Numbered from the stretch's first letter, positions 1,012 through 22,820 are shown. The stretch is DNA of 25,509 nucleotides from Anaerolineae bacterium (GCA_027021705.1 JALUTT010000142.1:1-25509), one strand, 5' to 3'. The notes: generated from the sequence alone by a model not told the origin. A program made the numbers and translations.

Positions 1012-1316
1012 CGCAAACCGTCACCGAGGGAGAACCCCCCTTTCCGGCCGGTGAAAAAGGGCTCGGGGTGGGCTTGATGCCCCACCGGAAGGGTGGAATG
1101 AGGGGATACACATTTCCTTTCCCCCACCAAAGATCTCCCTGCGAGAATCACCGAAAACCCCCGAAAAAGCGTGCAGGAGGCCACTCCTCTGTCACCGGCC
1201 TTCGGGAGAGCACAACGGGCGGGGTCTGCCGTGGAGGGCAAGCGAGGATGCCGACAAGGATGAAGGGATGGGAAAGCCGGTGCCTATATCTTACCCGCTT
1301 TTTCCTCTCCCGTCAA
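1012..1316 (-). promoter_or_regulatory. CRISPR leader with sigma70 promoter pointing into the array
   Basis: Minus strand TTGACG (1316-1311) - 17 bp - TAAGAT (1293-1288), on the side opposite the degenerate repeat. Confidence 0.75.
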
Positions 1317-1338
1317 GACCCACTCGCGCGTGTGACTG

Positions 1339-1390
1339 TTCCACAACTGGTGAAAAAGGTGTATAATGAGGGCAGTAGCAGGAGGAGGTG
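1339..1390 (+). promoter_or_regulatory. Transposase promoter and RBS
   Basis: TTCCAC (1339-1344) - 17 bp - TATAAT (1362-1367); GGAGGAGGTG at 1381-1390 before ATG 1395. Confidence 0.6.
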
Positions 1391-1394
1391 AGCT

Positions 1395-2573
1395 ATGCGT
1401 CTAAGGGTGAAGATTTCCAAGGTAGAACCGGGGCGCTATCCGGAGCCGATCGAATGTCCCTACTGCCACAGCCGAGCGGTCAAGCTCCACCAGGGGGGGT
1501 GTTCCAAGGCGGTGCGTGATCTGACGTATGAGGAAGTGGAGGTCCAGCGTCAGCGCTGTTTGAGTTGTCGGCGGACTTTCCGGGTGTATCCGGAGGGGGT
1601 CTCCCGGGGCCAGCAATCGCAGGCGTTGAAGGCGCTCAGTGTGATGTTGTATCTGTTGGGGCTCAGCTACGGGGCGGTGACCGATGTGCTGGAGGTGATG
1701 GGGGCGTTGTTGGGCAAGCCGGTCCAGTTGGGGAAGACGACCGTCTATCGGAACGTTCAAGAGGCGGGGGAGAAGGCGCGGCGGCTTCGTCGGAGGTGGC
1801 TGGAGGGGGGGAAGCGGGTCCGGGTGATCGGGGCGGACATCACCCAGGTGAAGTGTGGGGGGGAGAGTCTGCTGGTTGGGGTGGTGGTGGATGACCGGAC
1901 GGGTATTGAGTTGAGCGTGGAGATTCTGGAGGACGAGACGACCGAGAGCCTCTTGGCCTGGCTGAAGGAGGTGGCGGACCTGGTGGGAGCGGAGGTGGTG
2001 GTCACGGATGATGCCGATGGGCTCAAGACGGTGGCCGATGACCTGGATCTGGCGCACCAAATCTGCCGGGCTCACGTGACCAAGAACACCCTTCGGTTGG
2101 TGGGGGAGTTGGGGACTCAGGCGATGGAGGCTCCTCATCCTCCGCCACCGGGGGTGAACAAGGGGGTTGAGGAGTTTCTGGCCGACTTGGAGGAGGTCCA
2201 AAGGCTGATTGAGAGCCATCCCCACGATGGGCAGGCGCGGATGAAGGCGCTCCACTTGGCCTATTGCCAGGCTCCCCCTCCCGGGGAGGGGGAGAAAGCC
2301 ACTATGTGGTATCGGATGCGATTGCTGACCCTGGACCGATGGGAGAATTGGCCCCGCCTCACCCTCTATCAGCGGTGGCGAGGCCCCCAAGGGGAGCGCA
2401 TCGATGGCACCAACAATGGGGCCGAACGGGCGATTGGCTGGTGGGTGAAGGAAAGATACCGCTCTATGCGGGGCTACAAGCGCCGAGAATCGGTGTTGAA
2501 CGTCAGCACCCTCTTGGGCTGGCTGGGCGCTCAGACAGCCGATTACGACCTCGCCGAACTCGTGGCTGCTTGA
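1395..2573 (+). CDS. DDE transposase with N-terminal zinc ribbon
   Basis: CPYC...CLSC zinc ribbon, HTH-like segment, VIGAD / VVVTDD / TNNGAER catalytic triad, HQICRAH (CxxH) motif; bounded by TIRs. Confidence 0.88.
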   Translation: MRLRVKISKVEPGRYPEPIECPYCHSRAVKLHQGGCSKAVRDLTYEEVEVQRQRCLSCRRTFRVYPEGVSRGQQSQALKALSVMLYLLGLSYGAVTDVLEVMGALLGKPVQLGKTTVYRNVQEAGEKARRLRRRWLEGGKRVRVIGADITQVKCGGESLLVGVVVDDRTGIELSVEILEDETTESLLAWLKEVADLVGAEVVVTDDADGLKTVADDLDLAHQICRAHVTKNTLRLVGELGTQAMEAPHPPPPGVNKGVEEFLADLEEVQRLIESHPHDGQARMKALHLAYCQAPPPGEGEKATMWYRMRLLTLDRWENWPRLTLYQRWRGPQGERIDGTNNGAERAIGWWVKERYRSMRGYKRRESVLNVSTLLGWLGAQTADYDLAELVAA

Positions 2574-2642
2574 AAGCCCTCAAGATGGGGGGACCCCTCG
2601 CCTCCCCTGAATCTTCCACCAAACTCGGAACAATCACTCGCG

Positions 2643-2796
2643 CGGTGATTACCCACAAGGGAGCGAGAGAGTGGTCCGTAGCAGGCCGTCCACGAATTTC
2701 TCACAAATGCACGATGAGGCGGTCCTTAATTCGTGTATTCGTGCCCCATTCGTGGACGGCTCGTCTCCCTATCTCCAAAGATATGGGCAATCACCG
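2643..2796 (+). mobile_element. MITE family 1, copy A (154 bp)
   Basis: TIR CGGTGATTACCCA / TGGGCAATCACCG; internal 13-bp inverted repeat 2685-2697 / 2748-2760; near-identical to three other copies in the window. Confidence 0.88.
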
Positions 2797-2826
2797 GCCA
2801 TTTGCGCCCCTTGCGCCAAGTCTTCC

Positions 2827-3879
2827 CTACGGCCCAGGAGAGGCTGTCGGGGTTGCCGCCGAAGGAACCCGCAGCGTGGTGAAAGTCACCAGCGTCGTCC
2901 GCCCCGCCTCCACGCTGGCCGTCCACAGGTGCGTCTCCCCCCCCACCTCCGCCTTCACCGTGTACTTCCCCGGCTTCAGCTCCCAGAAGACGAAGTTCTC
3001 CCCCCACCCCTCATCCGGGTGAACGACGGAGCTGGTGTAGGTCCAGGTCTCCTCGACCAACCGATCCCCCTGGTAGATGCGAATGGGATGGCGATGGATG
3101 TAGCGCCCCAGCGGATCCACCAGCCGGCCCGCCAGCGTGCCCGTGCCCTGGCGCGGCTTCAGCCAGAGCACCGGGTTACGGGTGTAGGCCTCGCTGTTCT
3201 GACCAATCCGCACCTCCAGGTGGACGTGGGGGCCGGTGGCGTTGCCCGTCATCCCCGCCAACCCGATCCGTTCCCCCGTCTGCACGTGCTGCCCCTCGCG
3301 GACCAGGACCTGGGAGAGGTGGGCATAGAGGATGTAGACGGGCCACCCCTCGAAGGTCCGATCGAGCCGGAGCATCACGTGGTTGCCGTAGGCCCCGCTC
3401 GGCCGGCCGTTGATCTCCACCAACTGGTTCCCCGCCTCGATCACCACCCCCGAGGCGACGGCCTGCACGGGGTCCCCCTCCGAAGCGCTGATGTCCACCC
3501 CCCGATGGACCCAGGACCCTCCCGGCCAGGGCGCTCCGTAGGGATAGATGTGCAGGACCTGCCCGGGCACCGGCCACTCCAGCCAGTAGTGCTCCTTGAG
3601 GATCTGGTTGATGACGATGGCCGGCCGGGGCTCCCCGGTGGGAGTAACGATGAAGCCGGGGCGCTGCGGGGCCGGCGAGGGCAGCGACGTCCCGGCCGGC
3701 GTGGGCGGCGGCAGGGGGGTGGGCGAGGGCTGCAGGGTGGGGAACGGGACCGGCGTGATCACCGAAGCGCCCGCCAGGTCTGCGCACCCGGCCACGACGA
3801 AGAGCAAGGGCAGGACCAGCCCCACGAACCCAACGGCCCGGAAGAGGGCCGGCCACCGACCATCGGGCCTCCCCCTCAC
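2827..3879 (-). CDS. M23 family metallopeptidase, probable lipoprotein
   Basis: HRGVD and HVH zinc motifs, signal peptide with VAGC lipobox-like motif, Pro/Thr linker, C-terminal beta-sandwich; GTG start overlaps the upstream stop. Confidence 0.88.
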
Positions 3880-5102
3880 GGCCCCCCCTCCCCCGATGCA
3901 GGCAGCGTCAGGGTGACGAAAGCGGTCTGGCCCGCCACCACCTCCACCGGCACCTCCAGCACCTCATCCCCCACGTAGGCCCGCACCAGGTAGCTGCCGG
4001 CCGGCAGATCGCCGATGGCGAAGTTCTCCTGCCAGAACTCGTCCGGGTTCACCCCGGTGTCGGCGTAGGTCCAGCTCTGACGGACCGCCTGCCCCGAAGG
4101 CCGGAGGATGGCGATGGGCACATCGTAGAGGAACCGGCCCTCGGCGTCGGTCACCCGGCCGGCGACGGTCCCGAAGCCGGCGTAGGGGGCCATCCAGAGC
4201 TGCGGGTTGCGGGTGTCGGCGTAGGTGTTGCCCCCCACCCGGACCTCCAGGTGCAGGTGAGGTCCCAGGGCAACCCCGCTGGAGCCGGAGTAGCCGACCA
4301 GTTGACCGGGCTCCACCCGCTCCCCCACCTGGGCCACCACCTCCGAGAGGTGGCCGTAGAGGACGTAGACCGGCTGCCCCCGATACGTCCAGTCCAGTTG
4401 GATGACCACCAGCAGGCCGTAGTAGTTGGGCCGCTTGCCGTAGACGGCGGTCCGGTCGTCGCCGGCCACGATCACCTGGCCGGGGGCCACCGCCACCAGC
4501 GGCGTTCCCAGGCCGGCCCCGATGTCCAGGCCGTGGTGGACGGCCAGCCGCCCTCCTCCCGTGGTCCCGTACAGGTAGTTGGAGGCCGCCCAGCTTGGCC
4601 CCTCGATGCCCAGCGGACGGAAGAGCCAGTAATGCTCCGCCGGATCGTCGGGCACCGAGGTGGCCGACAGCCCCTCCGTCGGCCCCCGCAGGATCGTCCC
4701 AGGCCCCAGCGGGGTCGGTGACGGGCGGGGCGTCCAGGTCGGGGTCGGGGTAGGCGTCTCCGTCGGCGTCGCCGTGGGCGTCGGCGTCGCCGTCGGGGTG
4801 TTGGTGGGGGTCGGGGTGGGGGTGGGCGTGTTAGTGGGGGTCGGCGTTGGGGTCGGCGTCGGCGTCGGCGTCGGCGTATTGGTGGGGGTTGGGGTGTAGG
4901 TCGGCGTGGGCGTATCGGTGGGCGTCGGCGTCGGCGTCGAGGTGATGACGGCCACCGGCGTGGCGGTGAGCACCGCCCCCGCCTGGGCTCCCAACATCTG
5001 GTCGGCGGTGAAGAGGATGACCAGGGCGACGACGACGAGGCCACCCATCCAACCGGTGGCCCGCCGCCTTCGGTAGAGGGAAGGACCGTCGTTCAGGACC
5101 AT
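3876..5102 (-). CDS. M23 family metallopeptidase with long Pro/Thr linker
   Basis: HHGLD and HLH motifs, N-terminal TM/signal, long (TP)n tract; paralog of the adjacent gene. Confidence 0.88.
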
Positions 5103-5107
5103 CGGCG

Positions 5108-6649
5108 CTATCCCTGCTCCAGGCCGGCCCGCCGGACGACGACGGCGCTTACCTTCTTCCAGAGATGGCCCGCCTGCTCCCGGAGGTCCTCCACCTCGGC
5201 CAGCCAGCGCCGGCGCAGGGCTTCGTCCTCCAGGGCGAGGGCGTTGACCCGGACGTTGAGAGCAGCCCCCTCGACGGCGGCCCAGGCCAGGTGGGCCGCC
5301 ACGCCGGCGTCGGTCACGGCGTTGACGTTCCCCACCTCGGCCACCTGCCGGATCAGCCGCAGCGTGGCCACCGCCTCGCGGGCCACCGCCAGGGGGACCT
5401 CACCAGCCCGTCGGGTAGCCTCCTGGATCGCCTGTCGGCGGGCGGCCTTCTCCGCCTCGGTCCCTTTGGGCATCCGGTAGGCCGCCATCACCGCGTCGAA
5501 GGCAGCGCTGTCCTGGGCCACGGCGGCTGTGAGGCGGACCCGGAGCGTGCCGGCCTCGGCCAGCACCTCCTGCATCGCTTCCTCTACCAGGGCGTACTTC
5601 TTCCGCCCCACCGTCAGGCCGGCCACCATCTGGGCCAGGGCAGCGGCCAGGGCGGCGGCCAGCGCCGAGACGGCCCCGCCTCCCGGCGTCGGCGTAGGGG
5701 CCGCCACCGCGTCCAGGAAGGCCGTCGGTGTGGTCTCGGCCTCCATCGCGGCGGCCAGCCGGTTCTCCAGGACCTGGTCGGGCTCGAAGAGGTCCAACTG
5801 CAGGTGCCAGCGGGCCGCCTCCACCAGGGCTGCCTGGGGGATCAGCCCCACCAACTCGCTGTGGGTCACCGCCACGCCGTAGCGGGCTGCCTCCTGGCGG
5901 ATCAGGTTGACCACCCGCTGGATGGGGGTCTTCTCGTAGTTGGTCAGGTTCATCGAGACCTGGGCCTGTCCTTCGACCAGGAAGCCCTTGGCCTGGACGT
6001 AGCGCAGGCCCCCGCTGGAGTGGCGGACCGCCCGGGCGATGCGGTCGGCAATGCGCACATCGTCGGTGTTCAGGTAGACGTTGAAGGCGATGAGGAAGGG
6101 GCGGGCTCCGACGACGGTGGCCCCGGCTTTGCCCAAGCGGGCCGGCCCGAAGTCGGGAGCCCGGTCCGGGTCCGTGGCGATGGCCTCCCGCAGCCCCTCG
6201 TACTCCCCGCGCCGGATGGTGGCCAGGCGCCGGCGGTCGGGCCGGCGGGCAGCCTCGGCGTAGAGGTAGGTGGGGATCTCCAGCTCGGCGGCGATGCGCC
6301 GGGCCACCCGCTCCGCCATCGCCACACAGTCGGCCATCGTCACCCCCTGGAGGGGGACGAAGGGGATGACGTCGGTGGCCCCGATGCGGGGGTGTTCCCC
6401 CCGGTGTTGGGTCATGTCAATCAGTTCGGCGGCCCGGGCCGCCCCTTGGAAGGCCGCTTCCTCCACCGCCTCCGGCGGACCGACGAAGGTGACGACGGTC
6501 CGGTTGTGGTCCGGGTCGCTGTGGGTATCGAGGACGTAGACCTGGGGGACGGCGGCGATGGCCCCGACGATGGCCTGGATCACCTCCTCCCGCCGGCCCT
6601 CGCTGAAGTTGGGTACACATTCGACCAGCCGTTGGGGTTTCTTGGTCAT
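5108..6649 (-). CDS. ftcd: Glutamate formimidoyltransferase / formimidoyltetrahydrofolate cyclodeaminase
   Basis: [42 protein letters not shown] cyclodeaminase domain; start placed at ATG 6649 (ORF extends to GTG 6697 through repeats). Confidence 0.93.
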
Positions 6650-6823
6650 TTGGTCGTTTGGTCGCGTGGTCAGGTGGTCGGGTGGTCGCTTGGTCACGTA
6701 GTCACGTGGTCGGGTGGTCAGATGGTCGGTTGGTCGCTTGGTCGCGTGGTCAGGTGGTCGGGTGGTCGCTAGGTCGCTAGGCCGCTAAGCCGCTAGGCCG
6801 CTAGGCCGCTAAGCCGCTAGGTC
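6643..6823. repeat. Degenerate 8-bp tandem repeat tract (TGGTCnnn grading into GCCGCTA[G/A])
   Basis: Visible 8-bp periodicity over about 180 bp in the ftcd 5' region. Confidence 0.9.
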
Positions 6824-6832
6824 AACGGTCGG

Positions 6833-6861
6833 ATTGTACAGGAATTTTCACCAACCGTCAA
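6833..6861 (-). promoter_or_regulatory. Sigma70 promoter for ftcd-M23-M23 operon
   Basis: Minus strand TTGACG - 17 bp - TACAAT. Confidence 0.75.
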
Positions 6862-6866
6862 CCTGT

Positions 6867-6969
6867 GCGAATTGCAAATTGCGAATTGCGAATTGCGAAT
6901 TGCAAATTGCAAATTGCAACTTGCAACTTGCAACTTGCCCCTTGCCCCTTGCAACTTGCCCCCTGCCCC
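6867..6969. repeat. 7-bp tandem repeat tract (GCGAATT / GCAAATT / GCAACTT / GCCCCTT)
   Basis: Clear 7-bp periodicity between two divergent promoters. Confidence 0.9.
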
Positions 6970-6970
6970 A

Positions 6971-6999
6971 TTGACACTTCCTCCATTCCGGGGTATAAC
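6971..6999 (+). promoter_or_regulatory. Sigma70 promoter for amidase / L,D-transpeptidase operon
   Basis: TTGACA - 17 bp - TATAAC. Confidence 0.8.
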
Positions 7000-7049
7000 A
7001 GGGTTGCCGACCTGGGAGACCCGTTGCAGAGGGGAGATCACCCAAGCTT

Positions 7050-7889
7050 ATGTCCGACTCCCGACCCCCGACTCCAAACCCCAAACCCCGATTCCGGCGT
7101 TGGGTGCCCTGGCTCCGCTACCCGGTGCTGGAGGCCGCCTGGCGGGGAGCCCGGGGACTGGCGCTGGCCGCCGGGCTGCTGGCCCTGCTCCTGGGCCTCT
7201 ACGGCCTGCTGGTGCCCACCCCTGCCGCCTCCCAGCCGGGGGGGCCATCCTCGGGCCGGGCGACCCTCCCCCCGCCCACCCCCACGCCTCGGCCGCCCAC
7301 CCCCACCCCACCTCCCCCCACGCCCTCGGTCCCCCGCATCGGCATCGTGGCCGGCCACTGGTGGCCGGAGGGGTCCGAGATGAGCGACGCGGGAGCGGTC
7401 TGTCCCGATGGCCTGACGGAGGTCGAGATCAACAAAGACGTGGCCGAGCGGGTCGTCTTCACCCTGCGCAAGATGGGCTACCGGGCCGACCTGCTGGCCG
7501 AGTGGGACGAGCGGCTCCAGGGCTACCAGGCCGACGCCCTCGTCTCCATCCACGCCGATTCCTGCCTCTACCCCGAAGCCTCGGGGTTCAAGGTGGCCCG
7601 GGTGACCGACAGCGTGATCCCAGAGGAAGAGGACCGTCTGGTGGCCTGCCTGGCCGACCGCTACGCCCGGCGCACCGGCCTCCGCTTCCACCGCAACAGC
7701 ATCACCTACGATATGACCCGCTACCACACCTTCTACGAGATTGACCCCCTAACGCCGGGGGCCATCATCGAGGTGGGCTTTATGCTGGCGGACCGGGACC
7801 TGCTGACCCGGCGGCCCGACCTGGTGGCCCAGGGGATCATTGACGGCCTGCTCTGCTACCTGCGGGAGGAGACGGTCAATGGGCCGTGA
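7050..7889 (+). CDS. N-acetylmuramoyl-L-alanine amidase (Amidase_3)
   Basis: IGIVAGH, TEVEIN, VSIHAD and IIEVGFM motifs; TM helix plus Pro/Thr linker; start uncertain because the first codons are 7-bp repeats. Confidence 0.85.
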
Positions 7890-8868: not shown

Positions 8869-8875
8869 GTCGAGG

Positions 8876-8950
8876 CCCTCCCGCAGGTCCCCATAGGCAA
8901 CCTCTGAGAAACCACCGCTGTCACCGGGCACCGCGTGACCTGCAGGAGGG
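8876..8950. repeat. Inverted-repeat element, family 2 (decayed copy) between convergent genes
   Basis: CCCTCCCGCAGGTC (8876-8889) / GACCTGCAGGAGGG (8937-8950), same arms as the element at 22320-22441. Confidence 0.7.
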
Positions 8951-8979
8951 TGACCACCGTCAGGTAACCGGCTACGGAG

Positions 8980-10140
8980 TCAATCCTGCGGCGTCGCCGT
9001 TGCCTCTGCTTCTGCCTCCTGGCAGAGGCGGATCCCCTCCTGGGCGTTGACCTCGTCGGGATCCCGGGCCAGCACCTGCTGGAAGAGGGGGATCGCCCGC
9101 TCGCACCGGTCCAGGTAGTAGTAGCAGAGCCCCAGCGTGTAGTAGTACTCCAGCTTCTCCCCCCCCTCGGCCAAAGCCCGCTCCAGGGCCGGGATGGCAT
9201 CCTCGTAGTTGCGCCGTCGGTAGTAGGTGATCCCCAGCCGGCCCCAGCCCTGGGCGTAGCGGGGATCCACCTCCACCGCTTTCTTTAGGTAGATCTGGGC
9301 CTGCTCAAACTCCCCCATCCCGAAGTAGGTCCAGCCCACCTCATCGTACCCCTCGGCGCTGTTCGGGTCCAGCTCGGCGGCCCGCTTGAAGCTGGCGATG
9401 GCCTCATCGAACTGCCCCAGGACCCGGTAGTTCCGGCCCAAGGCCATGTAGATGTAGGCCAGGTTGGGATGAATGGCTAGGGCCTGTTGATAGGCTTTGA
9501 TCGCCTGGCTGTAGTTGCCCTGGCTCTCCAGCGCGTAGGCGCGGTTCCGGTGGACGTCCACGCTCTGGGGGTCCAACTCCAGGGCCGTCTGGAGCTCCTC
9601 GTAGACATCATCCCACCCGACGCCGAAGCTGCCGCTCAGGATGTAGTCGGTGTAAGCTTCGGCCAGGTAGGCGTGGGCTTCGGCGTAGCGGGGGTTGAGG
9701 GCGATGGCCTCCTTGCAGGCGGCGATGGCCTCGTCCACGGCCCCGTTCCAGTCCAGGGCCATGCAGAGGATCGCCCGGGCCTCGGCGCTCTCGGGGTCCG
9801 CGTCCACCGCCCGACGGGCCATCGTCAGCCCCTCTTCCAGCTCTCCATCCAGGATGAGCAGCCGGGCCAGGGGAACCATGACGGCGGGGTCGTTGGGGGT
9901 CAGGCGGAGAGCCTGCCGGTAGTTGGCGATGGCCTCCTGAAAATCGCCGCGCCGATAGGCGGCCACCGCGTCGAGGATGTACGAGGGGGCACCCCGGGTG
10001 GGCGTCGGGGTGGGCTGGAAGGGCTCCTGGAAGGTCTCCCGCTGACGGAGCACGTAGAGCCCCGCCGCGATGAGGATGAGGAGCACCAGGATCCGTTTGG
10101 GTGACGACCGGCGTCGCTTGGGGGGAGGTCCTAGGTACAT
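8980..10140 (-). CDS. Membrane-anchored tetratricopeptide repeat protein
   Basis: N-terminal basic stretch and TM helix, multiple TPR units (A...Y..AL...P). Confidence 0.9.
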   Translation of the reverse strand: MYLGPPPKRRRSSPKRILVLLILIAAGLYVLRQRETFQEPFQPTPTPTRGAPSYILDAVAAYRRGDFQEAIANYRQALRLTPNDPAVMVPLARLLILDGELEEGLTMARRAVDADPESAEARAILCMALDWNGAVDEAIAACKEAIALNPRYAEAHAYLAEAYTDYILSGSFGVGWDDVYEELQTALELDPQSVDVHRNRAYALESQGNYSQAIKAYQQALAIHPNLAYIYMALGRNYRVLGQFDEAIASFKRAAELDPNSAEGYDEVGWTYFGMGEFEQAQIYLKKAVEVDPRYAQGWGRLGITYYRRRNYEDAIPALERALAEGGEKLEYYYTLGLCYYYLDRCERAIPLFQQVLARDPDEVNAQEGIRLCQEAEAEATATPQD

Positions 10141-10164
10141 TGCACGCTCTCCCGTCCGGCCGCT

Positions 10165-10193
10165 ATGATAACACGTTCATCCAGGCCCGTCAA
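10165..10193 (-). promoter_or_regulatory. Sigma70 promoter for TPR gene
   Basis: Minus strand TTGACG - 17 bp - TATCAT with extended -10 TG. Confidence 0.72.
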
Positions 10194-10205
10194 GATGGCA
10201 GAGAC

Positions 10206-10360
10206 CGGTGATTACCCATATCTTTGGAGATAGGGAGACGGGCCGTCCACGAAGGGGGCACGAATACACGAATTAAGGACCGCCTCCTTCGTGCATTTGT
10301 GAGAAATTCGTGGACGGCCTGCTGCGGACCACTCTCGCGCTCACTTGTGGGTAATCACCG
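10206..10360 (-). mobile_element. MITE family 1, copy B (155 bp, inverted)
   Basis: Perfect 13-bp TIR CGGTGATTACCCA / TGGGTAATCACCG; reverse complement of copy A. Confidence 0.88.
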
Positions 10361-10406: not shown

Positions 10407-11129
10407 TCACCTGCTCCCGCGTCGGAGGCTCCCCCACCCCAAGGCGAGGCCGGCCAGGAGCATGGCCAGGCCTAGAAGCTGATCCAGCCGCCACCCCCCC
10501 AGGGCGGGCATCGGGTCGCCCCGCCAGCCCCCCAAGATAAGGAAAAGCCCACCCGTTCCCACCAGGTAGAGGGCGAAGCGGCGTCCGGGGCGCTCCGAGG
10601 TCCACCAGAGCAGGAGGGCCAGGAGCCCATTGCCGCCGGCCGCCAGCCGCTGGACGGCGACCCGGGGCTCCTGCAGGCCGTAGAGATCGGGCAGGTCGGC
10701 GCTGAGCCGCCAGAGGAGACCATCGGCGGGATAAACGGGACGTCCCCAGGCGCAGCCCGCCCCATCGCAGGCCAGCCAGGCCAGGCCGCTCCCCAGGGCC
10801 AGGGGGACGGCCAGTAGGTCCAGGATGGGCAGCCAGCGCGTGCGGTGGAGGGCACAGACCGGCCCGGTGGCCAGCAACCCCACCAGAAGGCCGATCTGGC
10901 CGTTCAGCCCCCCCTGCCAGAGGCGGATCGCCTCGCCCAGGTGGTCGCGGAAGTAGGCCCAGTTGAGGGCCACGTAGCCAGCCCGCGCCCCCAAGAGGCC
11001 CGCCAGGATCCCTCCCAGCACCAGGTCCAGCAGGAGGGCCAATGGGAGGCCGCGCCGACGCCCCATCAGGTAGAAGAGCAGCGCCCCTCCCACCAGCGCC
11101 CCGTTGAGCCAGGTCCGGTAAGCAAGCAT
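10407..11129 (-). CDS. Prolipoprotein diacylglyceryl transferase (Lgt)-like membrane protein, divergent
   Basis: GARAGYV...NW.YF, LWQGGL, LD...PLALG, GC.WG.P pattern and multiple TM helices match the Lgt layout; the ORF-track extension to 11192 runs into a MITE. Confidence 0.75.
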   Translation of the reverse strand: MLAYRTWLNGALVGGALLFYLMGRRRGLPLALLLDLVLGGILAGLLGARAGYVALNWAYFRDHLGEAIRLWQGGLNGQIGLLVGLLATGPVCALHRTRWLPILDLLAVPLALGSGLAWLACDGAGCAWGRPVYPADGLLWRLSADLPDLYGLQEPRVAVQRLAAGGNGLLALLLWWTSERPGRRFALYLVGTGGLFLILGGWRGDPMPALGGWRLDQLLGLAMLLAGLALGWGSLRRGSR

Positions 11130-11135: not shown

Positions 11136-11163
11136 ATTGTATGCGCTTCTGGGGAAAAGACAA
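11136..11163 (-). promoter_or_regulatory. Promoter for lgt-like gene, probably leaderless
   Basis: Minus strand TTGTCT - 16 bp - TACAAT, then only 6 nt to ATG 11129. Confidence 0.55.
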
Positions 11164-11176
11164 GCGCGAAGGGCAG

Positions 11177-11331
11177 CGGTGATTACCCACAAGTGAGCGA
11201 GAGAGTGGTCCGTAGCGGGCCGTCCGCGAATTTCTCACCAATGCACGAATGAGGCGGTCCTTAATTCGTGTGTTCGCGCCCCATTCGTGGACAGCTAGTC
11301 TCCCCATCTCCAAAGATATGGGTAATTACCG
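11177..11331 (+). mobile_element. MITE family 1, copy C (155 bp)
   Basis: TIR CGGTGATTACCCA / TGGGTAATTACCG; flanking 11-bp direct repeat GCGAAGGGCAG / GAGAAAGGCAG (9/11). Confidence 0.88.
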
Positions 11332-11366
11332 GAGAAAGGCAGCCCACAACACGCCCCATGTCTCCA

Positions 11367-14437: not shown

Positions 14438-14470
14438 CCCCCCGCCCCCATCCTCGCCCCAACCCGAGCG

Positions 14471-14536: not shown

Positions 14537-14593
14537 AGAGAAGGCCGGGAAAGCAGAGACTTTGGGTGATACCTTGATGCCAAGGAGGTTCCT

Positions 14594-16146: not shown

Positions 16147-16149
16147 GCG

Positions 16150-18171
16150 ATGAGCAAGGAACGAGTTGGCGTCTACATCTGTCACTGCGGTACGAACATC
16201 GCCGGCACGGTGGACGTGGAAGCGGTCGCCCGCTGGGCCAGTGAGCAGCCCCACGTGGCGGTGGCCCGCGACTACAAGTTCATGTGCTCCAGCCTGGGCC
16301 AGGACCTCATCGAAGAGGACATCCGCGAACTGGGCCTCACCCGCGTCGTCGTCGCCGCCTGCTCCCCCCACATGCACGAGAAGACCTTCCGCACCGCCTG
16401 TCAGCGAGCCGGCCTCAACCCCTTCCTCTTCGAGATGGCCAACATCCGCGAGCACAACTCCTGGGCCACCGACGACCGGGAGGCGGCCACCGAGAAGGCC
16501 AAGGCATTGGTCAAAGGGGCCATCGAGCGGGTCGTCCACCATCAGCCCTTGGAGCCCCTGCCCGTCCAGATCAACCCCGCCACCCTCGTCGTCGGCGGCG
16601 GCATCGCCGGCATCACCGCCGCCCTGGAGCTGGCCAACGCCGGCTACCCCGTCTACCTGGTCGAGCGGGAGCCCTCCATCGGCGGCCATATGGCCCAGTT
16701 GGACAAGACCTTCCCCACCCTCGACTGCTCCGCCTGCATCCTCACCCCCAAGATGGTCGAGGTGGGGCAGCACCCCCACATCACCCTGCTGAGCTACAGC
16801 GAGGTGGAGGAGGTGGAGGGGTACATCGGCAACTTCACCGTCACCGTGCGCAAGAAGGCCCGCCACGTCAACGAGGAGCTCTGCACCGGCTGCGGCATCT
16901 GCGAGGAGAAGTGCCCCAAGAAGGTGCTGGATGAGGTCTTCGAGGCCGGGCTGGGCTACCGCAAGGCGATCTACCGCCCCTTCCCCCAGGCGGTGCCCAA
17001 GTACCCCGTCATTGACGTAGAGAACTGCATCTACTTCCAGCGGGGGAAGTGCAAAGCGTGCCAGATCTTCTGTCCCGCCGGCGCCATAGACTTCGAGCAG
17101 GAGGACGAGATCCTGCAGATCGAGGTGGGGAACATCATCCTGGCGACGGGGTACGACCTCTTCGACCCGCGCCGGATTCCCCAGTACGGCTACGGGCGGC
17201 TGGCCAACGTCTTCACCAGCCTGGAGTTCGAGCGGATGGTGAACGCGGCGGGGCCGACGGGGGGCCGGATCGTCCTGCGGGATGGGGTGACGGAGCCCCA
17301 GAGCGTGGCCATCATCCACTGCGTGGGCTCGCGGGACAAGAATTACAACGAGTACTGCTCCAAGGTCTGCTGTATGTACTCCCTCAAGTTCGCCCACCTG
17401 GTCCACGAGCGGCTGCCCAACGCCGAGGTCTACAACTTCTACATTGACATCCGCGCCCCCGGCAAAGGGTACGAAGAGTTCTACCACCGACTCCTAGAAG
17501 AGAAGACGCACTTCATCCGGGGCCGGGTGGCCGAGGTGACCGACGCCGCACGGATGCCCGGCGAGGAGGGCAAGCTGATCGTCCAGGTCGAGGACACGCT
17601 GATCGGCAGACAGCGGCGCATCCCGGTGGATATGGTGATCCTGAGCGCGGGGCTGGAGGCGCGGCACGACTCGCGGGAGGTGGCCCAGCGCTTCGGGCTG
17701 GGATGCGACTTCAACGGCTTCTTCGTCGAGCGCCACCCGAAGCTGGACCCGGTGGCGACGATGACGGAAGGGGTCTTCGTCGCCGGGGCCTGCCAGGGGC
17801 CGAAGGACATTCCCGAGTCGGTGGCCCAGGGGGCGGCAGCGGCGGCCCGGGTGGCCAGCCTGATCAGCCAGGGGACGGTGCTGATGGAGCCGGTGCGGGC
17901 CCACATCATCGAGGAACTCTGCTCCGGCTGCCGCATCTGCAACAACCTCTGCCCCTACAACGCCATCGTCTACCACGAGGACCGGAAGGTGTCGGAGGTG
18001 GTGACGGCCCTCTGCCAGGGGTGTGGGACCTGCGTGGCGGCCTGCCCCAGCGCCGCCATCACCGGCGCCCACTTCACCAGCGAGCAGGTGATGTTCCAGA
18101 TCGAAGGCATTCTGTGGGACGTGCGCTCTCCCGACGGGCGGGAGCGGGAGCCGGAGATGGTGATGGCGTGA
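16150..18171 (+). CDS. hdrA: Heterodisulfide reductase subunit A (FAD, Fe-S)
   Basis: VGVYICHCGTNI, GGGIAG, LDKTFPTLDCSACILTP, HCVGSRD, CSKVCCMY, ferredoxin motifs. Confidence 0.95.
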   Translation: MSKERVGVYICHCGTNIAGTVDVEAVARWASEQPHVAVARDYKFMCSSLGQDLIEEDIRELGLTRVVVAACSPHMHEKTFRTACQRAGLNPFLFEMANIREHNSWATDDREAATEKAKALVKGAIERVVHHQPLEPLPVQINPATLVVGGGIAGITAALELANAGYPVYLVEREPSIGGHMAQLDKTFPTLDCSACILTPKMVEVGQHPHITLLSYSEVEEVEGYIGNFTVTVRKKARHVNEELCTGCGICEEKCPKKVLDEVFEAGLGYRKAIYRPFPQAVPKYPVIDVENCIYFQRGKCKACQIFCPAGAIDFEQEDEILQIEVGNIILATGYDLFDPRRIPQYGYGRLANVFTSLEFERMVNAAGPTGGRIVLRDGVTEPQSVAIIHCVGSRDKNYNEYCSKVCCMYSLKFAHLVHERLPNAEVYNFYIDIRAPGKGYEEFYHRLLEEKTHFIRGRVAEVTDAARMPGEEGKLIVQVEDTLIGRQRRIPVDMVILSAGLEARHDSREVAQRFGLGCDFNGFFVERHPKLDPVATMTEGVFVAGACQGPKDIPESVAQGAAAAARVASLISQGTVLMEPVRAHIIEELCSGCRICNNLCPYNAIVYHEDRKVSEVVTALCQGCGTCVAACPSAAITGAHFTSEQVMFQIEGILWDVRSPDGREREPEMVMA

Positions 18172-18237
18172 GGCGTAAACGCGACACGCGCCACGGAACA
18201 CGCACCACGCAAGCGGTCTGAATCAGGAGAGTGAACG

Positions 18238-18723
18238 ATGAGCGAGAGATACGAACCCGTGATCGTGGGGTTTCTGTGCAACTGGTGCTCCTACCGGGCT
18301 GCTGACCTGGCCGGCACCTCCCGCCTCCACTACGCGCCCAATATGCGCCCCATCCGCGTGATGTGCAGCGGACGGGTGGATCCCCAGTTCGTGCTCAAGG
18401 CGCTGCGGGAAGGGGCCGACGGGGTTCTCATCGCCGGCTGTCACCCGGGCGAGTGTCACTACGTGGAAGGTAACATCAAGGCCCTGCGCCGCTACATCCT
18501 GCTCAAGCGCCTGCTGCGCCAGTTGGGTGTGGAAGAGGAGCGGGTCCAACTGATCTGGGCCTCGGCCTCCGAGGGGAACGTGCTGGCGGAGGCGGTAGAC
18601 CGGATGACGGAACAACTGCGGGCGCTGGGTCCTCTGCGCTGGCGGGAGATGGTGCTGAGCGGTGACGGCCACCGGCCGTCCCCCCTCCCGCAGCAGGCCG
18701 CGCCGGTGGCGGAGGAGGTGTGA
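18238..18723 (+). CDS. mvhD: F420-non-reducing hydrogenase iron-sulfur subunit D
   Basis: FLCNWCSY, RVMCSGRVDP, GCHPGECHY..GN, WASASEG. Confidence 0.93.
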   Translation: MSERYEPVIVGFLCNWCSYRAADLAGTSRLHYAPNMRPIRVMCSGRVDPQFVLKALREGADGVLIAGCHPGECHYVEGNIKALRRYILLKRLLRQLGVEEERVQLIWASASEGNVLAEAVDRMTEQLRALGPLRWREMVLSGDGHRPSPLPQQAAPVAEEV

Positions 18724-18725
18724 CG

Positions 18726-19751
18726 ATGGCCGAGAAGGGAAAGGGCAAACTCGCTATGTACTGGGCGGCCTCCTGTGGGGGGTGCGAGATCGCCGTGCTC
18801 AACATCGGCGACAAGATCCTGGACGTGGATGCCGCCTTCGACATCGTCTTCTGGCCCTGTGCCGCCGACTTCAAGTACGAGGATGTGCGGAACTACCCCG
18901 ACCGCTACATTGACCTCTGCCTCTTCAACGGGGCGATCCGCACCTCGGAGAACGAGGAGATGGCCCACCTGCTCCGCCAGAAGTCGAAGGTGCTGGTCGC
19001 CTTCGGCTCCTGCGCCTACGAAGGGTGCATCCCAGCCCTCTCTAACCTAACCACGGCCGAAGCCACCCTCCGCACCGCCTACCTGGAGAGCCCTTCCACG
19101 GACAACCCCGACGGGGTCCTCCCCCAGCCGGTTACCCAGGTGCCGGAAGGGGAGTTGCACATCCCCGCCTTCTACAACACCGTCAAGACACTGGACCAGG
19201 TGGTGCCGGTGGACTACTACATCCCCGGCTGCCCGCCGGAGCCCCACCAGATCTGGGCCGTCCTGGAAGCGGTCATCCAGGGGGCGGAACTGCCACCGCC
19301 GGGCTCCATCATCGGTGCGGGGACGGTGGCCGTCTGCCACGAGTGCCCCCTGGAGAAGCACGAGAAGCAGATCGAGCGCTTCTACCGGCCCTACGAGATC
19401 ACGCCGGAGCCGGGGCTCTGTCTGCTGGAGCAAGGGATCGTCTGCCTGGGGCCGGCCACCCGCAGTGGCTGCGGGGCCCTCTGTCCCCGCGTGGGGATGG
19501 GCTGCCGGGGCTGCTACGGGCCGCTGGACGGGGTCGAGGATCAGGGAGCCCGCATCCTCTCGGCCATCGCCTCGGTCGTCGGGGTGGGAACCCCTGAGGA
19601 GGATGAAGCGGAACTGGAGCGGAAGATCGAGGCTGTGATGGAGACGCTGGCGGACCCGGCCGGCACCTTCTATCGCTTCAGCATGGCCCGCTCCCTGCTC
19701 CAGCGGGCCCGCGTCGGTGGCAACGGTGCCGGGAAAGGAGAGGCCCGATGA
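18726..19751 (+). CDS. mvhG: [NiFe] hydrogenase small subunit (group 3c-like)
   Basis: SCGGCE, AFGSCA, PGCPP, CLLEQG..CLGPATRSGCGALCP...GCRGCYG; ATG 18726 suits RBS spacing (alternative GTG 18720). Confidence 0.88.
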   Translation: MAEKGKGKLAMYWAASCGGCEIAVLNIGDKILDVDAAFDIVFWPCAADFKYEDVRNYPDRYIDLCLFNGAIRTSENEEMAHLLRQKSKVLVAFGSCAYEGCIPALSNLTTAEATLRTAYLESPSTDNPDGVLPQPVTQVPEGELHIPAFYNTVKTLDQVVPVDYYIPGCPPEPHQIWAVLEAVIQGAELPPPGSIIGAGTVAVCHECPLEKHEKQIERFYRPYEITPEPGLCLLEQGIVCLGPATRSGCGALCPRVGMGCRGCYGPLDGVEDQGARILSAIASVVGVGTPEEDEAELERKIEAVMETLADPAGTFYRFSMARSLLQRARVGGNGAGKGEAR

Positions 19752-21241
19752 AACGGATCAGCATTGACCCCATCACCCGACTGGAAGGCCACGGCAAGAT
19801 CGAGATCTTCCTCAACGGCGACGGGGACGTTGCCAACGCCTACTTCATCATCCCCGAGCTGCGGGGGTTCGAGCAGTTCTGCGTGGGCCGGCCGGCCGAG
19901 GAGATGCCCCGCATCACCAACCGCATCTGTGGCGTCTGCCCAGAGGCCCACCACATGGCCTCGACCAAGGCGCTGGACGATCTCTTCCACGTCGCCCCCC
20001 CCTCGGTGACCAAGAAGCTGCGGGAGATGTTCTACTGCGCCTTCTACGTCACCGACCACACTACCCACTTCTACGCCCTAGGCGGCCCCGACTTCGTCGT
20101 CGGCCCCGACGCACCCCCGGCCGAGCGCAATATCCTGGGCGTGATCCACAAGGTGGGGGTCGAGGTCGGCAAACTGGTCATCGCCTGCCGGCAGCGCAAC
20201 CACCACGTCATCGAGATGGTCGGAGGCCGAGGCATCCACCCGGTGGCCGGCCTGCCCGGCGGGTGGAGCAAGCCCATCACCGAGGAGGAGCGGCAGGAGA
20301 TCGAAGAGATCGCCCGGCAGAACGTGGACTTCGCCCTCTTCAGCCTCGGCCTCTTCGAGGACCTGGTGCTGGGCAACCAGGAATACGTGGATATGATCCT
20401 CTCGGACGCCTACACCCACCGTACCTACTACATGGGCACGGTGGACGAGAAGAACCGGGTCAACTTCTACGACGGGATGATCCGGGTGGTGGACCCCGAG
20501 GGGAAGGAGTTCGTCAAGTACCATCCCCGCGACTACACCCAGCACGTGGCCGAGCACGTCGAGCCCTGGACCTACCTCAAGTTCCCCTACCTCAAGGCGG
20601 TGGGCTGGAAAGGGTTCGTGGATGGCAAGGAGAGCGGCGTCTACTGTGCCACCCCCCTGGCCCGACTGAACGCGGCCGACGGGATGGCGACGCCCCGCGC
20701 CCAGGAAGCCTACGAGAAGATGTACGAGACCTTGGGCAGCAAGAAGGTCAATGGGCGCTACCAGCCGATCCACTACCGGCTGGCCACCCACTGGGCCCGG
20801 CTCATCGAGCTCCTCTATGCCGCCGAGCGGATGCTGGAACTGATTACCGACCCCGAGATCACCGACCCCAACGTGCGTGCCCCCATCACCGAGACGCCGG
20901 ATGAGGGCGTGGGCTGCGTGGAAGCGCCCCGGGGCACCCTGACCCACCACTATTGGACCGACGAGCGGGGCATCTTGACCAAGGTCAACCTCATCGTGGG
21001 CACCACCAACAACTACGCCCCGATGGCTATGTCCATCAAGAAAGCGGCCCAGGCCCTCATCAAGAAGGGCACGGTGATCACCAACGGGCTGCTGAACCGG
21101 ATCGAGATGGCCTTCCGGGCCTACGATCCCTGCTTCGCCTGCGCCACCCACTCCCTGCCGGGCCAGATGCCGCTGGAGGTGATCATCCGGGATGCCGAGG
21201 GGAAGGTGGTAGAGCGGTTGAGTCAGTACGTGGAAGCGTGA
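19748..21241 (+). CDS. mvhA: [NiFe] hydrogenase large subunit (group 3c-like)
   Basis: IDPITRLEGHG, RICGVC (L1), EAPRG, DPCFACATH (L2) followed by a cleavable C-terminal tail. Confidence 0.92.
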   Translation: MKRISIDPITRLEGHGKIEIFLNGDGDVANAYFIIPELRGFEQFCVGRPAEEMPRITNRICGVCPEAHHMASTKALDDLFHVAPPSVTKKLREMFYCAFYVTDHTTHFYALGGPDFVVGPDAPPAERNILGVIHKVGVEVGKLVIACRQRNHHVIEMVGGRGIHPVAGLPGGWSKPITEEERQEIEEIARQNVDFALFSLGLFEDLVLGNQEYVDMILSDAYTHRTYYMGTVDEKNRVNFYDGMIRVVDPEGKEFVKYHPRDYTQHVAEHVEPWTYLKFPYLKAVGWKGFVDGKESGVYCATPLARLNAADGMATPRAQEAYEKMYETLGSKKVNGRYQPIHYRLATHWARLIELLYAAERMLELITDPEITDPNVRAPITETPDEGVGCVEAPRGTLTHHYWTDERGILTKVNLIVGTTNNYAPMAMSIKKAAQALIKKGTVITNGLLNRIEMAFRAYDPCFACATHSLPGQMPLEVIIRDAEGKVVERLSQYVEA

Positions 21242-21269
21242 AGCGCGAAACGTGAAGCCCGAGCAGAGG

Positions 21270-21776
21270 ATGCGAAAAACGTTGGTCCTTGGCCTTGGCA
21301 ACCCCATCCTGAGGGACGACGGCGTGGGCGTGCGGGTGGCGGAGATGGTGAAAGCCGCCCTCCCGTCCGATGCCCCCGTCGAGGTACGCCAGGTCAGCGT
21401 CGGAGGGCTGACGCTGATGGAGGCGATGGTAGGCTACGAACGGGTGATCCTCGTGGACGCTTTCCACCGCCGCGACGGGAGGCCCGGCACCACCCACCGA
21501 CTGACGCTGGAGGAGCTGCAGGCCATCAGCCCGACCCAGCACATCGCCTCACCCCACGACGCCACTCTGGTCACCGCGCTGGAAGTGGGCCGGCGGATGG
21601 GGTTGCCCCTGCCCGAGGAGATCACCATCTACGCCGTCGAGGTGGAGAACGTCACCGAGTTCGGCGAGGAGCCCACACCGGCCGTCGCCCGGGCCATCCC
21701 CCAGGTGGCCCGGGCCGTGCTGGTCGAACTGGGCCTCCCCACCGACTCCTCACCGGCCACAGACCAAGACCTGTAG
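21270..21776 (+). CDS. Hydrogenase maturation protease
   Basis: VLGLGNPILRDDGVG, ILVDA, SPH motifs; start placed at ATG 21270 (alternative GTG 21252 lies in short repeats). Confidence 0.9.
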   Translation: MRKTLVLGLGNPILRDDGVGVRVAEMVKAALPSDAPVEVRQVSVGGLTLMEAMVGYERVILVDAFHRRDGRPGTTHRLTLEELQAISPTQHIASPHDATLVTALEVGRRMGLPLPEEITIYAVEVENVTEFGEEPTPAVARAIPQVARAVLVELGLPTDSSPATDQDL

Positions 21777-21794
21777 AGCCTTCAGGAGGACACC

Positions 21795-22295
21795 ATGGTC
21801 TCACCGGAATTGATCCGGCGCTATCCCTTTTTCGCCGGCCTGGAACACGAGCACATCGTTACACTGGCCGGCGCCGCCGACGAAGTGACGGTGGAGGAAG
21901 GGCACTACTTCTTCCGCGAAGGGGAAGACCTCTGCTGTTTCTACGTCGTCATGGAAGGAGCCGTCGCCATCCTGGTTGAACTGCCCGATCAAGAGGCGGA
22001 GCAATCCCTGGCCGGGCAACTCACGGGTGAGTTGCACACCCGTGAGGTGGTCATCAGCACCGTCGGGCCGGGTGAGGTCTTCGCCTGGTCGGGCATCGTG
22101 CCCCCTCACAAGGCCACCGCCATCGCCAAGGCCCTCACCCCCTGTCGGGTGATCGCCTTCGACTGCAAGCAACTGCTCAAAGCCTTTGAGGAGGATCACC
22201 GCTTCGGCTACCTGATGATGCAGAAGGCCGCCCAGGTGATCCGGGACCGCCTGCGCGACACCCGGATCCAGTCCCTGGCCTACGTCGCCGAGTGA
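21795..22295 (+). CDS. Stand-alone cyclic nucleotide-binding (Crp-type effector) domain protein without HTH
   Basis: PFFAGL, FFREGE...FYVVMEGAV, VGPGEVFAWS, ATAIA; ends after the C-helix; RBS AGGAGG. Confidence 0.85.
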   Translation: MVSPELIRRYPFFAGLEHEHIVTLAGAADEVTVEEGHYFFREGEDLCCFYVVMEGAVAILVELPDQEAEQSLAGQLTGELHTREVVISTVGPGEVFAWSGIVPPHKATAIAKALTPCRVIAFDCKQLLKAFEEDHRFGYLMMQKAAQVIRDRLRDTRIQSLAYVAE

Positions 22296-22319
22296 GCCAA
22301 TCGGATTTCGTCTAGAGGG

Positions 22320-22441
22320 GTATCCATTCAGCCTACCCTCCCGCAGGTCACCGGTCAAGGGCGCTTTCAGCCCCGATGGGCTATTTGAAGCACGGTTTCG
22401 CGTCGGAAACGCGCCTAACCTGCGGGAGGGTGAACAGTTAT
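22320..22441. mobile_element. MITE family 2 (about 122 bp)
   Basis: Direct repeat (T)CTAGAGGG at 22311-22319 and 22441-22449; perfect 14-bp inverted repeat ACCCTCCCGCAGGT (22335-22348) / ACCTGCGGGAGGGT (22418-22431); imperfect termini GTATCCATTCA / TGAACAGTTAT. Confidence 0.75.
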
Positions 22442-22487
22442 CTAGAGGGATGGTCTGGCCTTCTGCTTGGGGGGCAGCGAATGGCCC

Positions 22488-22554
22488 TCAACGAATAGGC
22501 GACGGATCAGCGAGTGGGTGTAGACATTCGCTGATTCGCTCCCTCATTCGTTGA
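22488..22554. repeat. Nested palindromic CGAAT/ATTCG repeat element
   Basis: TCAACGAAT / ATTCGTTGA outer arms; ATCAGCGAGTG / CATTCGCTGAT inner arms. Confidence 0.65.
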
Positions 22555-22578
22555 CGAGCCGGTTTTGGGCTTCGCGGT

Positions 22579-22613
22579 ACTTCCGAGGCCGTCCTCGCCT
22601 CGGAAGTTTTTTT
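22579..22613 (+). terminator. Intrinsic terminator after hdr-mvh operon
   Basis: ACTTCCGAGGC - 7 nt loop - GCCTCGGAAGT stem running into T7. Confidence 0.8.
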
Positions 22614-22616
22614 GGG

Positions 22617-22771
22617 CGGTGATTGCCCACAAGTGAGCGAGAGAGTGGTCTGTAGCGGGCCGTCCACGAATTTCTCACAAATGCACGGATGAGGCGGTCC
22701 TTATTTCGTGTATTCGTGCCCCCTTCGTGGACGGCTAGCCTCCCTATCTCCAAAGATATGGGTAATCACCG
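22617..22771 (+). mobile_element. MITE family 1, copy D (155 bp)
   Basis: TIR CGGTGATTGCCCA / TGGGTAATCACCG; perfect 11-bp direct repeat GTTTTTTTGGG at 22606-22616 and 22772-22782. Confidence 0.9.
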
Positions 22772-22784
22772 GTTTTTTTGGGTA

Positions 22785-22820
22785 TTGAAAAGCTGTCCCG
22801 TTTGTGATACAATACACAAA
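22785..22820 (+). promoter_or_regulatory. Sigma70 promoter of second two-component system with palindromic operator over the -10
   Basis: TTGAAA - 17 bp - TACAAT (extended -10 TG); palindrome TTTGTGATACAATACACAAA at 22801-22820. Confidence 0.72.

Follow-up and report, generated by a model that had tools for sequence, protein, structure and literature searches.

A 25,509-nucleotide (nt) contig from an Anaerolineae bacterium (GCA_027021705.1, JALUTT010000142.1; this whole stretch is called the window below) carries four copies, A to D, of a MITE (miniature inverted-repeat transposable element), each with a predicted promoter at its side. Our genome-wide analysis strongly supports that this MITE is inserted in a real register beside promoters throughout the genome. 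Probably, A to D are copies of a promoter-homing MITE that belongs to a Tn5-like insertion sequence (IS) family and was moved in trans, with the whole promoter being read. The further proposal that this Tn5-like family has independently evolved the use of the promoter-bound RNA polymerase holoenzyme, or of its DNA bend at about -40, as a landmark for target capture is more tentative, and we would put it slightly short of an even chance.

The MITE lies at a fixed distance upstream of promoters genome-wide

The window is one contig (C142) of a 5.19-Mb, 183-contig assembly with 66% G+C and 95% completeness. Using blastn with the MITE, 170 loci were found in this assembly, 85 of them full length. 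Pairing of ends 60 to 600 base pairs (bp) apart yielded 110 elements, of which 62 are exactly 155 bp long, and 108 had usable flanks (216 flanks). The elements show what is expected of a MITE: a length of 154 to 155 bp, which is too short for a transposase gene, 13-base inverted repeats, a target duplication, and dispersed copies.

Both flanks of each copy were read outward without preselection. The offset was defined as the distance in nt from the element end to the TTG of the -35 hexamer, and a full promoter as at least 9 of 12 matches to TTGACA/TATAAT with a spacer of 16 to 18 nt. An outward-facing TTGAC was present at offsets 10 to 14 in 56 of the 216 flanks, and every other offset was represented by at most two flanks. 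The exact word stood at offsets 9 to 15 beside 57 of the 108 elements, always on one side only. The shorter TTG was found at offsets 11 to 13 in 89 flanks, and 93 copies had it at offsets 10 to 14 on at least one side. Full promoters were detected at offsets 10 to 14 in 75 of the 216 flanks, compared with 3 of 20,000 random control positions (1.5e-4 per position). When the score was lowered to at least 8.5 of 12 and offsets 8 to 16 were allowed, 79 of the 108 copies had a promoter (43 on the left, 35 on the right, and 1 on both sides). In the 78 one-sided cases, the -35 was at offset 12 in 39 copies, at 11 in 18, at 13 in 14, at 10 and 14 in 3 each, and at 15 in 1. The element end facing the promoter was CACAAG in 47 cases and CATATC in 31, and a logo of the flanks revealed the promoter positions as their sole feature in common. 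Conversely, among 319 consensus-like promoter sites outside crude coding calls, 61 (approximately 19%) have a MITE within 20 nt.

Target duplications were evaluated in the same set. The identity between the two flanks of the 108 copies peaked at 0.54 for an assumed duplication length of 10 bp and was 0.40 at 9 and 11 bp and 0.25 to 0.31 elsewhere. Clean duplications (at most one mismatch) were present in 32 of the 78 one-sided cases, with lengths of 8 bp (1 case), 9 bp (6), 10 bp (19), and 11 bp (6). The gap between duplication and TTG was 2 nt in 29 of these 32 cases, 1 nt in one, and 3 nt in two. Thus, the cut next to the promoter has a fixed position, whereas the one on the far side is variable. 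The duplications themselves are mutually unrelated in sequence.

An earlier note on the window, made from its sequence alone, had described this register for the four local copies and had proposed that it would be enriched over the whole genome and over control sites. Both expectations were borne out, with the -35 at 11 to 13 nt from the element end and the -10 about 17 nt beyond it, on one side only. The note's further claims, namely that either end can face the promoter, that the target sequences are unrelated, and that a 10- to 11-bp duplication is set off by 2 bp, also hold at this scale, the duplication length being most often 10 bp (range, 9 to 11 bp).

Some further observations concern the MITE itself. 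In one place (G000:C156:16616-16946), a 155-bp and a 165-bp MITE, members of different subfamilies, adjoin, with the same 10-bp target present three times; this pair is located between two divergent promoters that stand back to back and have coinciding target windows. The hairpin module in the interior of the MITE (positions 43 to 120; 22659-22736 in copy D) also occurs without terminal repeats, as a tandem array of approximately 85-bp units on another contig (G000:C77:115630-116265), and it is present in two other genomes of the class (loci L014 and L015). The MITE seems to have captured a preexisting palindromic repeat. In the 40 relatives searched, the full MITE was absent and only the inner hairpin module was found.

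The whole promoter rather than the TTGAC word is the likely landmark

The surroundings of the predicted promoters were inspected in the 78 one-sided cases. The G of a TG just upstream of the -10, a position that lies outside the score, was present in 60 of them. Within 350 nt, a crude gene start pointing away from the element was found on the promoter side in 52 cases and on the other side in 28, and gene ends were found in 3 and 34 cases, respectively.

An alternative that we consider unlikely, although it has to be taken seriously, is that the transposase reads the promoter DNA itself (TTGAC, perhaps together with the -10) without RNA polymerase, and that insertions beside genic TTGAC words have been lost. 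The TTG at the register in 93 of the 108 copies fits this explanation, and purifying selection against genic insertions is to be expected. In addition, position -1 is occupied by a C more often than the promoter background would give (42 of 61 sites beside MITEs, compared with 117 of 258 free promoter-like sites). This excess weighs against our main explanation, and the transposase may, given this excess, read some DNA directly.

Other results speak against direct reading as the explanation. A TAnnnT -10 at a spacer of 16 to 18 nt followed 46 of the 57 MITE-adjacent TTGAC words but only 12.2% of 2,110 crude-intergenic ones (odds ratio, 30; p, 1e-30) and 1.1% of 5,680 coding ones. The gene calls used here are crude (78% coding) and the "intergenic" control is diluted by missed genes, which weakens the comparison, but even if half of the control were coding, only about 25% would be expected. 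Moreover, 7 of the 15 copies without TTG have a -10 with at least five of six matches at 33 to 35 nt from the element end, and any other offset was seen at most once; 6 of these 7 have a TG before the -10. Thus, the distance to the promoter is kept even where a -35 consensus is missing. Since the TTG-less copies keep the matching distance to a strong -10, the landmark appears to be the whole promoter and not the TTGAC word, and we regard these copies as the best evidence here that the promoter may be recognized as RNA polymerase sees it. Finally, it would be unusual if a Tn5-like enzyme read, on one side only, two motifs separated by 23 bp.

The idea of the earlier note that RNA polymerase or promoter structure guides the insertions is thus favored insofar as it names the promoter rather than a DNA word; a contact with the polymerase itself is what we infer.

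The MITE ends are shared with a Tn5-like IS family

In this assembly, no terminal inverted repeats (TIRs) paired at a distance of 600 to 5,000 bp had both a duplication and a transposase. Inspection by eye of the open reading frames (ORFs) beside unpaired MITE ends, to which family libraries were not applied, revealed no transposase. The 13-mer end was present in 69 of 401 genomes of the same class, in which a reversed control pattern was almost absent. Genome G153 had 59 matches at up to one mismatch. Genome G142 had 8 matches, 7 of them about 113 nt from contig starts, a pattern that we take as the mark of a collapsed IS. A complete 1,384-bp element with both ends and a frameshifted transposase gene was found in genome G305 (G305:C2:40992-42375), with TTGACA-17-TATAAT at offset 11.

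The protein of this element has 44 relatives of approximately 400 to 430 amino acids (aa), many of them on contigs of about 1.3 to 2 kb and one from an Ardenticatenia metagenome-assembled genome (MAG). We refer to this family as IS-Y. A scan of metagenome contigs with the IS-Y alignment yielded 80 loci encoding the transposase. At 69 of these loci, the gene is enclosed by (C/T)GGTGATTACCCA and the complement of this word (at most two mismatches), 1,350 to 1,520 bp from each other. The autonomous elements are 1.43 kb long and contain one gene for a DDE transposase of approximately 420 aa. The MITE and the IS-Y elements of other Chloroflexota genomes and metagenomes have a terminal repeat of 13 to 16 bases in common, and in G153 the start of the IS-Y gene adjoins a variant of the end. 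Because the same ends bound 69 of the 80 transposase loci, the MITE ends belong to the Tn5-like IS-Y family.

The relationship to Tn5 was suggested by structure prediction. An AlphaFold model of the IS-Y transposase, based on a 16-sequence alignment, was of medium confidence (predicted local distance difference test, 74; predicted template modeling [TM] score, 0.76). In a Foldseek comparison with PDB, the top five matches were Tn5 transposase chains (4dm0_A, 3ecp_A, 1mus_A, 1muh_A, and 1mm8_A; E values of 1e-15 to 2e-14 and TM scores of 0.62 to 0.69), and in the model strands at residues 224 to 302 precede the last catalytic region. A profile search of PDB sequences with IS-Y gave no match. 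The Pfam model DDE_Tnp_1 (PF01609) reached 26.7 bits, above its cutoff of 23, in one of six members and was below the cutoff or absent in the other five. The members tested matched no Transposase_mut, ISKra4, or ISLre2 model; of the two marks of Mutator-like DDE transposases, an alpha-helical insert and a C/D(2)H motif, the motif was not part of this comparison. In a plasmid collection, there were only distant "transposase" matches, with IS-Y approximately 28% identical to genes of Thermus and Deinococcus.

IS-Y copies and a different MITE show the same targeting elsewhere. In G153, a 143-bp MITE has the same ends and a different interior; of its 31 distinct flanks, 15 have a promoter at offsets 11 to 14. 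The metagenome IS-Y copies provided 113 distinct flanks, in which promoters were counted 12, 17, and 3 times at offsets 11, 12, and 13, respectively, and at most 3 times elsewhere. In total, 31 flanks qualified in 29 elements; the gene-start end accounted for 22 of these flanks and the opposite end for 9.

Proposed mechanism and points that weigh against it

Insertion creates a duplication of 9 to 11 bp, mostly 10 bp, whose promoter-side edge lies 2 bp upstream of the -35. The element end then sits at about -48 of a predicted promoter of the TTGACA-17-TATAAT type, and the core promoter together with 10 bp upstream of it stays intact. According to our proposal, a Tn5-like transposase, absent from this assembly, would have moved the MITE in trans. 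Target choice would read the whole promoter, most likely as the promoter-bound RNA polymerase holoenzyme or as a DNA distortion just upstream of the -35. The fixed promoter-side cut and the variable far cut suggest a complex anchored on the promoter side.

Several points weigh against this proposal. The promoters beside the MITEs are predictions throughout, and 29 of the 108 copies score below 8.5 on both sides, although several of them reach a score of 8, lie nested, or have a very small length. Searches with the IS-Y protein and profile gave no match in this 95%-complete, 183-contig assembly, whereas the profile does match genomes G305, G142, and G153. The earlier note had called for a transposase with the same TIRs; it was thus found in other genomes and metagenomes but not in this assembly, and mobilization of the MITE in trans by IS-Y is deduced from the shared ends only. 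The NCBIfam models IS4, IS701, IS1380, and IS1634 matched IS-Y weakly and always below their cutoffs; the IS4 models reached an E value of 3e-14, and the best IS4_3 score was 52.8 bits (cutoff, 160). In the metagenomes, a promoter was evident in only 29 of 69 IS-Y elements, the flanks of collapsed repeats may be chimeric, and clean duplications were few: seven copies had one at up to two mismatches, of 9 bp in one case and of 10 bp in six.

A Mutator-like IS homes to promoters with a geometry of its own

Copy A is split by a Mutator-like IS, designated IS-X (Table 1). Its transposase matched the Pfam model Transposase_mut with 25.5 bits (cutoff, 21). The IS256, ISL3, and ISH6 models matched far below their cutoffs, there was no match to an ISKra4 or ISLre2 model, and no NCBIfam IS family model accepts the protein. 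IS-X is present in multiple copies in the genome and breaks contigs. It belongs to a family of approximately 390-aa Mutator-like transposases with more than 3,000 database relatives; in the plasmid collection, only distant "transposase" matches were obtained, with IS-X approximately 28% identical to Rhizobium genes.

In the genome, five of six IS-X left ends lie beside a reverse-strand promoter at offsets 14 to 17, the exception being a partial copy on contig C113. One left end stands at offset 26, behind an end remnant. Relatives in Chloroflexota MAGs (loci L023 to L068) have ends of the form GTGAYYGTTY, and an 8-bp duplication was found in the three copies checked (L024 to L026). Among 66 flanks of these relatives, the -35 was counted 3, 13, and 2 times at offsets 14, 15, and 16, respectively, and 17 flanks (12 left and 5 right) had a promoter at offsets 13 to 17. 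Thus, the IS-X family homes to promoters with its own geometry, an 8-bp duplication and a -35 at 15 nt.

At two MITE-occupied promoters, IS-X is inserted with the -35 15 and 14 nt away, and its duplication consists partly of MITE DNA; in the C127/C109 pair, the duplication spans 4 nt of flank and 4 nt of MITE. IS-X and the MITE thus each measured from the same promoter, and the DNA that was cut into did not matter. Because the duplications are unrelated and IS-X cut into MITE DNA at its usual distance, the upstream DNA is irrelevant to targeting.

In our opinion, it is very improbable that the MITE owes its movement to a Mutator-like transposase (that of IS-X or that of the ISKra4-family element on contigs C168 and C41) and is thus a miniature member of the ISLre2/TnGBS/ISKra4 group. 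Both transposase kinds are present in the genome, IS-X is likewise promoter-homing and shares the promoter of copy A, and GTGATT as well as some subterminal bases are common to its ends and those of the MITE; moreover, according to Guerillot et al. (PMC3942029), Chloroflexi elements of the ISKra4 group target promoters from either side. However, IS-X and the MITE have only about six terminal bases in common, and they differ in enzyme, duplication length (8 versus 10 bp), and distance to the -35 (15 versus 12 nt). By its ends, duplication length, and register, IS-X was ruled out as the autonomous partner of the MITE. The ISKra4-like element ends in TTTTGGTCACGCTC and was ruled out by this different end. 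The MITE 13-base end, with C or T as the first base and at most two mismatches, bounds Tn5-like loci instead (69 of 80), and its end word is absent from the inverted-repeat columns of Table S1 of PMC3942029. The IS-X end words searched for are likewise absent from that table. The geometry of the IS-X family is that given in PMC3942029 for known Mutator-like promoter-seekers.

The end TTTTGGTCACGCTC is found in a second abundant repeat family with approximately 45 places in the genome, such as locus L012 (G000:C168) and the end of C41, and it is also the end of the genome's single ISKra4-family transposase gene. On the same contig as this element, there was a weak, subthreshold match to the ISLre2 model. 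The flanks of the repeat family begin with A+T-rich words, for example AATTCA and TTATCA, which suggests a different target rule.

Hardly credible, finally, is random insertion with survival only in harmless sites upstream of promoters, or a promoter that is part of the repeated unit: 89 of the 110 copies do lie outside crude coding calls on both sides, as selection alone would give, but selection cannot yield a register of ±1 bp, and the promoter is not carried by the element, because the duplication separates the element end from the -35 and the flanks share the promoter positions only.

Copies A to D and their surroundings in the window

The 13-base MITE end CGGTGATTACCCA has 10 matches in the window at up to two mismatches, compared with 0.41 expected, and 8 of them are the ends of A to D. 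The earlier note had claimed the layout of -35, 2 bp, duplication, and MITE end for all four copies, each with a correctly spaced -10. Our sequence reading agrees: all four are in place, and the predicted -10 follows at a spacer of 16 or 17 nt (Table 1).

Table 1. Copies of the MITE, IS-X, and adjoining features in the window
Feature	Position	Strand	Details
Predicted promoter beside A	1288..1316	-	GA gap (IS-X removed); -35 TTGACG 1316-1311; 17-nt spacer; TAAGAT 1293-1288; score 9 at offset 15 from the IS-X end
Promoter-side duplication of A	1319..1328		CCCACTCGCG; partner GCCATTTGCG 2797-2806; 7/10 identical; IS-X now between duplication and A
8-bp duplication of IS-X	1324-1331 and 2638-2645		TCGCGCGT and TCGCGCGG; 7/8 identical; made up of 5 nt from the flank and 3 nt from MITE A
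IS-X	1332..2637	+	1,306 bp; ends GTGACTGTTCC... and ...GGAACAATCAC; 392-aa Mutator-like transposase 1395-2573
MITE copy A	2643..2796	+	154 bp; cut off from its promoter by IS-X
Predicted promoter beside B	10165..10193	-	GA gap; -35 TTGACG 10193-10188; 17-nt spacer; TATCAT 10170-10165
Duplication of B	10196..10205		TGGCAGAGAC; partner CGACGGAGAA 10361-10370; 6/10 identical, decayed
MITE copy B	10206..10360	-	Orientation opposite to A, C, and D
Predicted promoter beside C	11136..11163	-	GC gap; -35 TTGTCT 11163-11158; 16-nt spacer; TACAAT 11141-11136
Left duplication of C	11166..11176		GCGAAGGGCAG; partner GAGAAAGGCAG 11332-11342; 9/11 identical
MITE copy C	11177..11331	+	Located by end matches and sequence reading
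Left duplication of D	22606..22616		GTTTTTTTGGG; read directly
MITE copy D	22617..22771	+	155 bp; ends CGGTGATTGCCCA and TGGGTAATCACCG
Right duplication of D	22772..22782		GTTTTTTTGGG; 11/11 identical to left
Predicted promoter beside D	22785..22813	+	TA after duplication; TTGAAA 22785-22790; 17-nt spacer; TG-n-TACAAT 22805-22813 (TACAAT 22808-22813)

The fold of copy D is one long hairpin (-75.1 kcal/mol; z, -7.5); in an Rfam scan of the window, no family was matched, copy D included. The T-run of its left duplication follows a G+C-rich hairpin (22580-22606) with the look of a terminator. The predicted promoter beside D points at a sensor histidine kinase gene (22908-24866), that beside B at a TPR protein gene (8980-10140), and that beside C at lgt (10407-11129). 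Transcription start sites are predicted near 22820 (+) for D, 11129 (-) for C, 10158 (-) for B, and 1281 (-) for A. The lgt start codon (ATG at 11129-11127 on the minus strand) begins 6 nt past the TACAAT -10, and the mRNA appears to be leaderless or nearly so.

The predicted promoter beside A points towards a CRISPR array (100-1050) with 37-nt repeats, a period of 73 to 75 nt, and one duplicated spacer (312-384 is identical to 385-457). On the minus strand, the repeat ends with GTTGAGAC; because of this, the promoter, with the MITE and IS-X upstream, may be the leader promoter of the array. Two other repeats were observed in the window. Between two large ORFs, positions 6627-6956 contain at least 17 8-nt units TGGTCNNN, followed by 7/14-nt units TGCGAAT/TGCAAAT, and a 12/18-nt periodic repeat lies within a minus-strand ORF at 4698-4971.

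Comparison with known promoter-seeking elements and IS4-type transposons

Elements of the IS4 family have target duplications of approximately 9 to 12 bp and the signature Y-(2)-R-(3)-E-(6)-K after the catalytic E, and Tn5 and IS10 follow a weak, symmetric consensus inside the duplication when they select targets. We know of no promoter register described for Tn5 or IS10. IS-Y resembles IS4, Tn5 (IS50), and IS10 in its predicted fold, its short terminal inverted repeats, its 9- to 11-bp duplication, and its length of approximately 1.4 kb with one gene. Unlike the IS4 family, it scores far below the cutoffs of the NCBIfam models named above, and its alignment consensus, W319-(2)-R322-(3)-E326-(6)-Q333, keeps the IS4 spacing but differs from the signature in two of the four residues (W...Q instead of Y...K).

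To our knowledge, Mutator-like elements are the only ones for which promoter-directed transposition in bacteria has been described, with its mechanism still unsolved. No MITE or IS4-type element that seeks promoters turned up in our literature searches, and PMC3942029 was the only relevant paper. According to this paper (Guerillot et al., 2014), ISLre2/TnGBS elements (p-MULT 3) insert 15 to 17 bp upstream of the -35 of sigmaA promoters, and elements of the ISKra4 group (p-MULT 4), those of Ktedonobacter (Chloroflexi) included, have promoters on both sides. For these Mutator-like promoter-seekers, direct repeats of 8 to 9 bp, a -35 at 13 to 17 bp from the inverted repeat, and a contact with the transcription initiation complex as the proposed basis are given there. 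Like them, the MITE is placed upstream of the -35 of housekeeping promoters, with a short and constant spacing, and leaves genes undisrupted, and like ISKra4-group elements with near-perfect inverted repeats, it is found in either orientation (PMC3942029). Unlike them, it has a 10-bp (9 to 11 bp) duplication and a -35 at 11 to 13 nt, its cognate transposase models as Tn5-like, and the amplified form is a 155-bp MITE. The parallel to ISLre2/TnGBS drawn in the earlier note is thus apt as an analogy of behavior and fails as kinship, since the cognate transposase is probably Tn5-like.

The same behavior is seen here in the best-understood transposase fold, that of Tn5; the register is sharper, and natural insertion sites number in the hundreds. 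Whether it is RNA polymerase or promoter DNA that a transposase reads can thereby be tested directly. A tiny noncoding element stands at -48 of approximately 19% of the genome's consensus-like promoters, and each copy takes the place of any activator or UP-element DNA upstream, a point to consider when regulation in these uncultured Chloroflexota is interpreted. If the more tentative proposal of independent evolution is true, promoter homing would be a convergent safe-harbor strategy in at least two unrelated transposase superfamilies, and MITEs could fill about one-fifth of a genome's strongest promoters, rewiring whatever lay upstream of -48. Such a transposase could serve as a tool by which DNA is inserted beside active promoters with genes unbroken. 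The MITE works like ISLre2, TnGBS, and ISKra4 elements but does not belong with them by enzyme fold, duplication length, or distance to the -35. The behavior is known from another superfamily; what differs here is the enzyme, that of an unclassified Tn5-like IS family.

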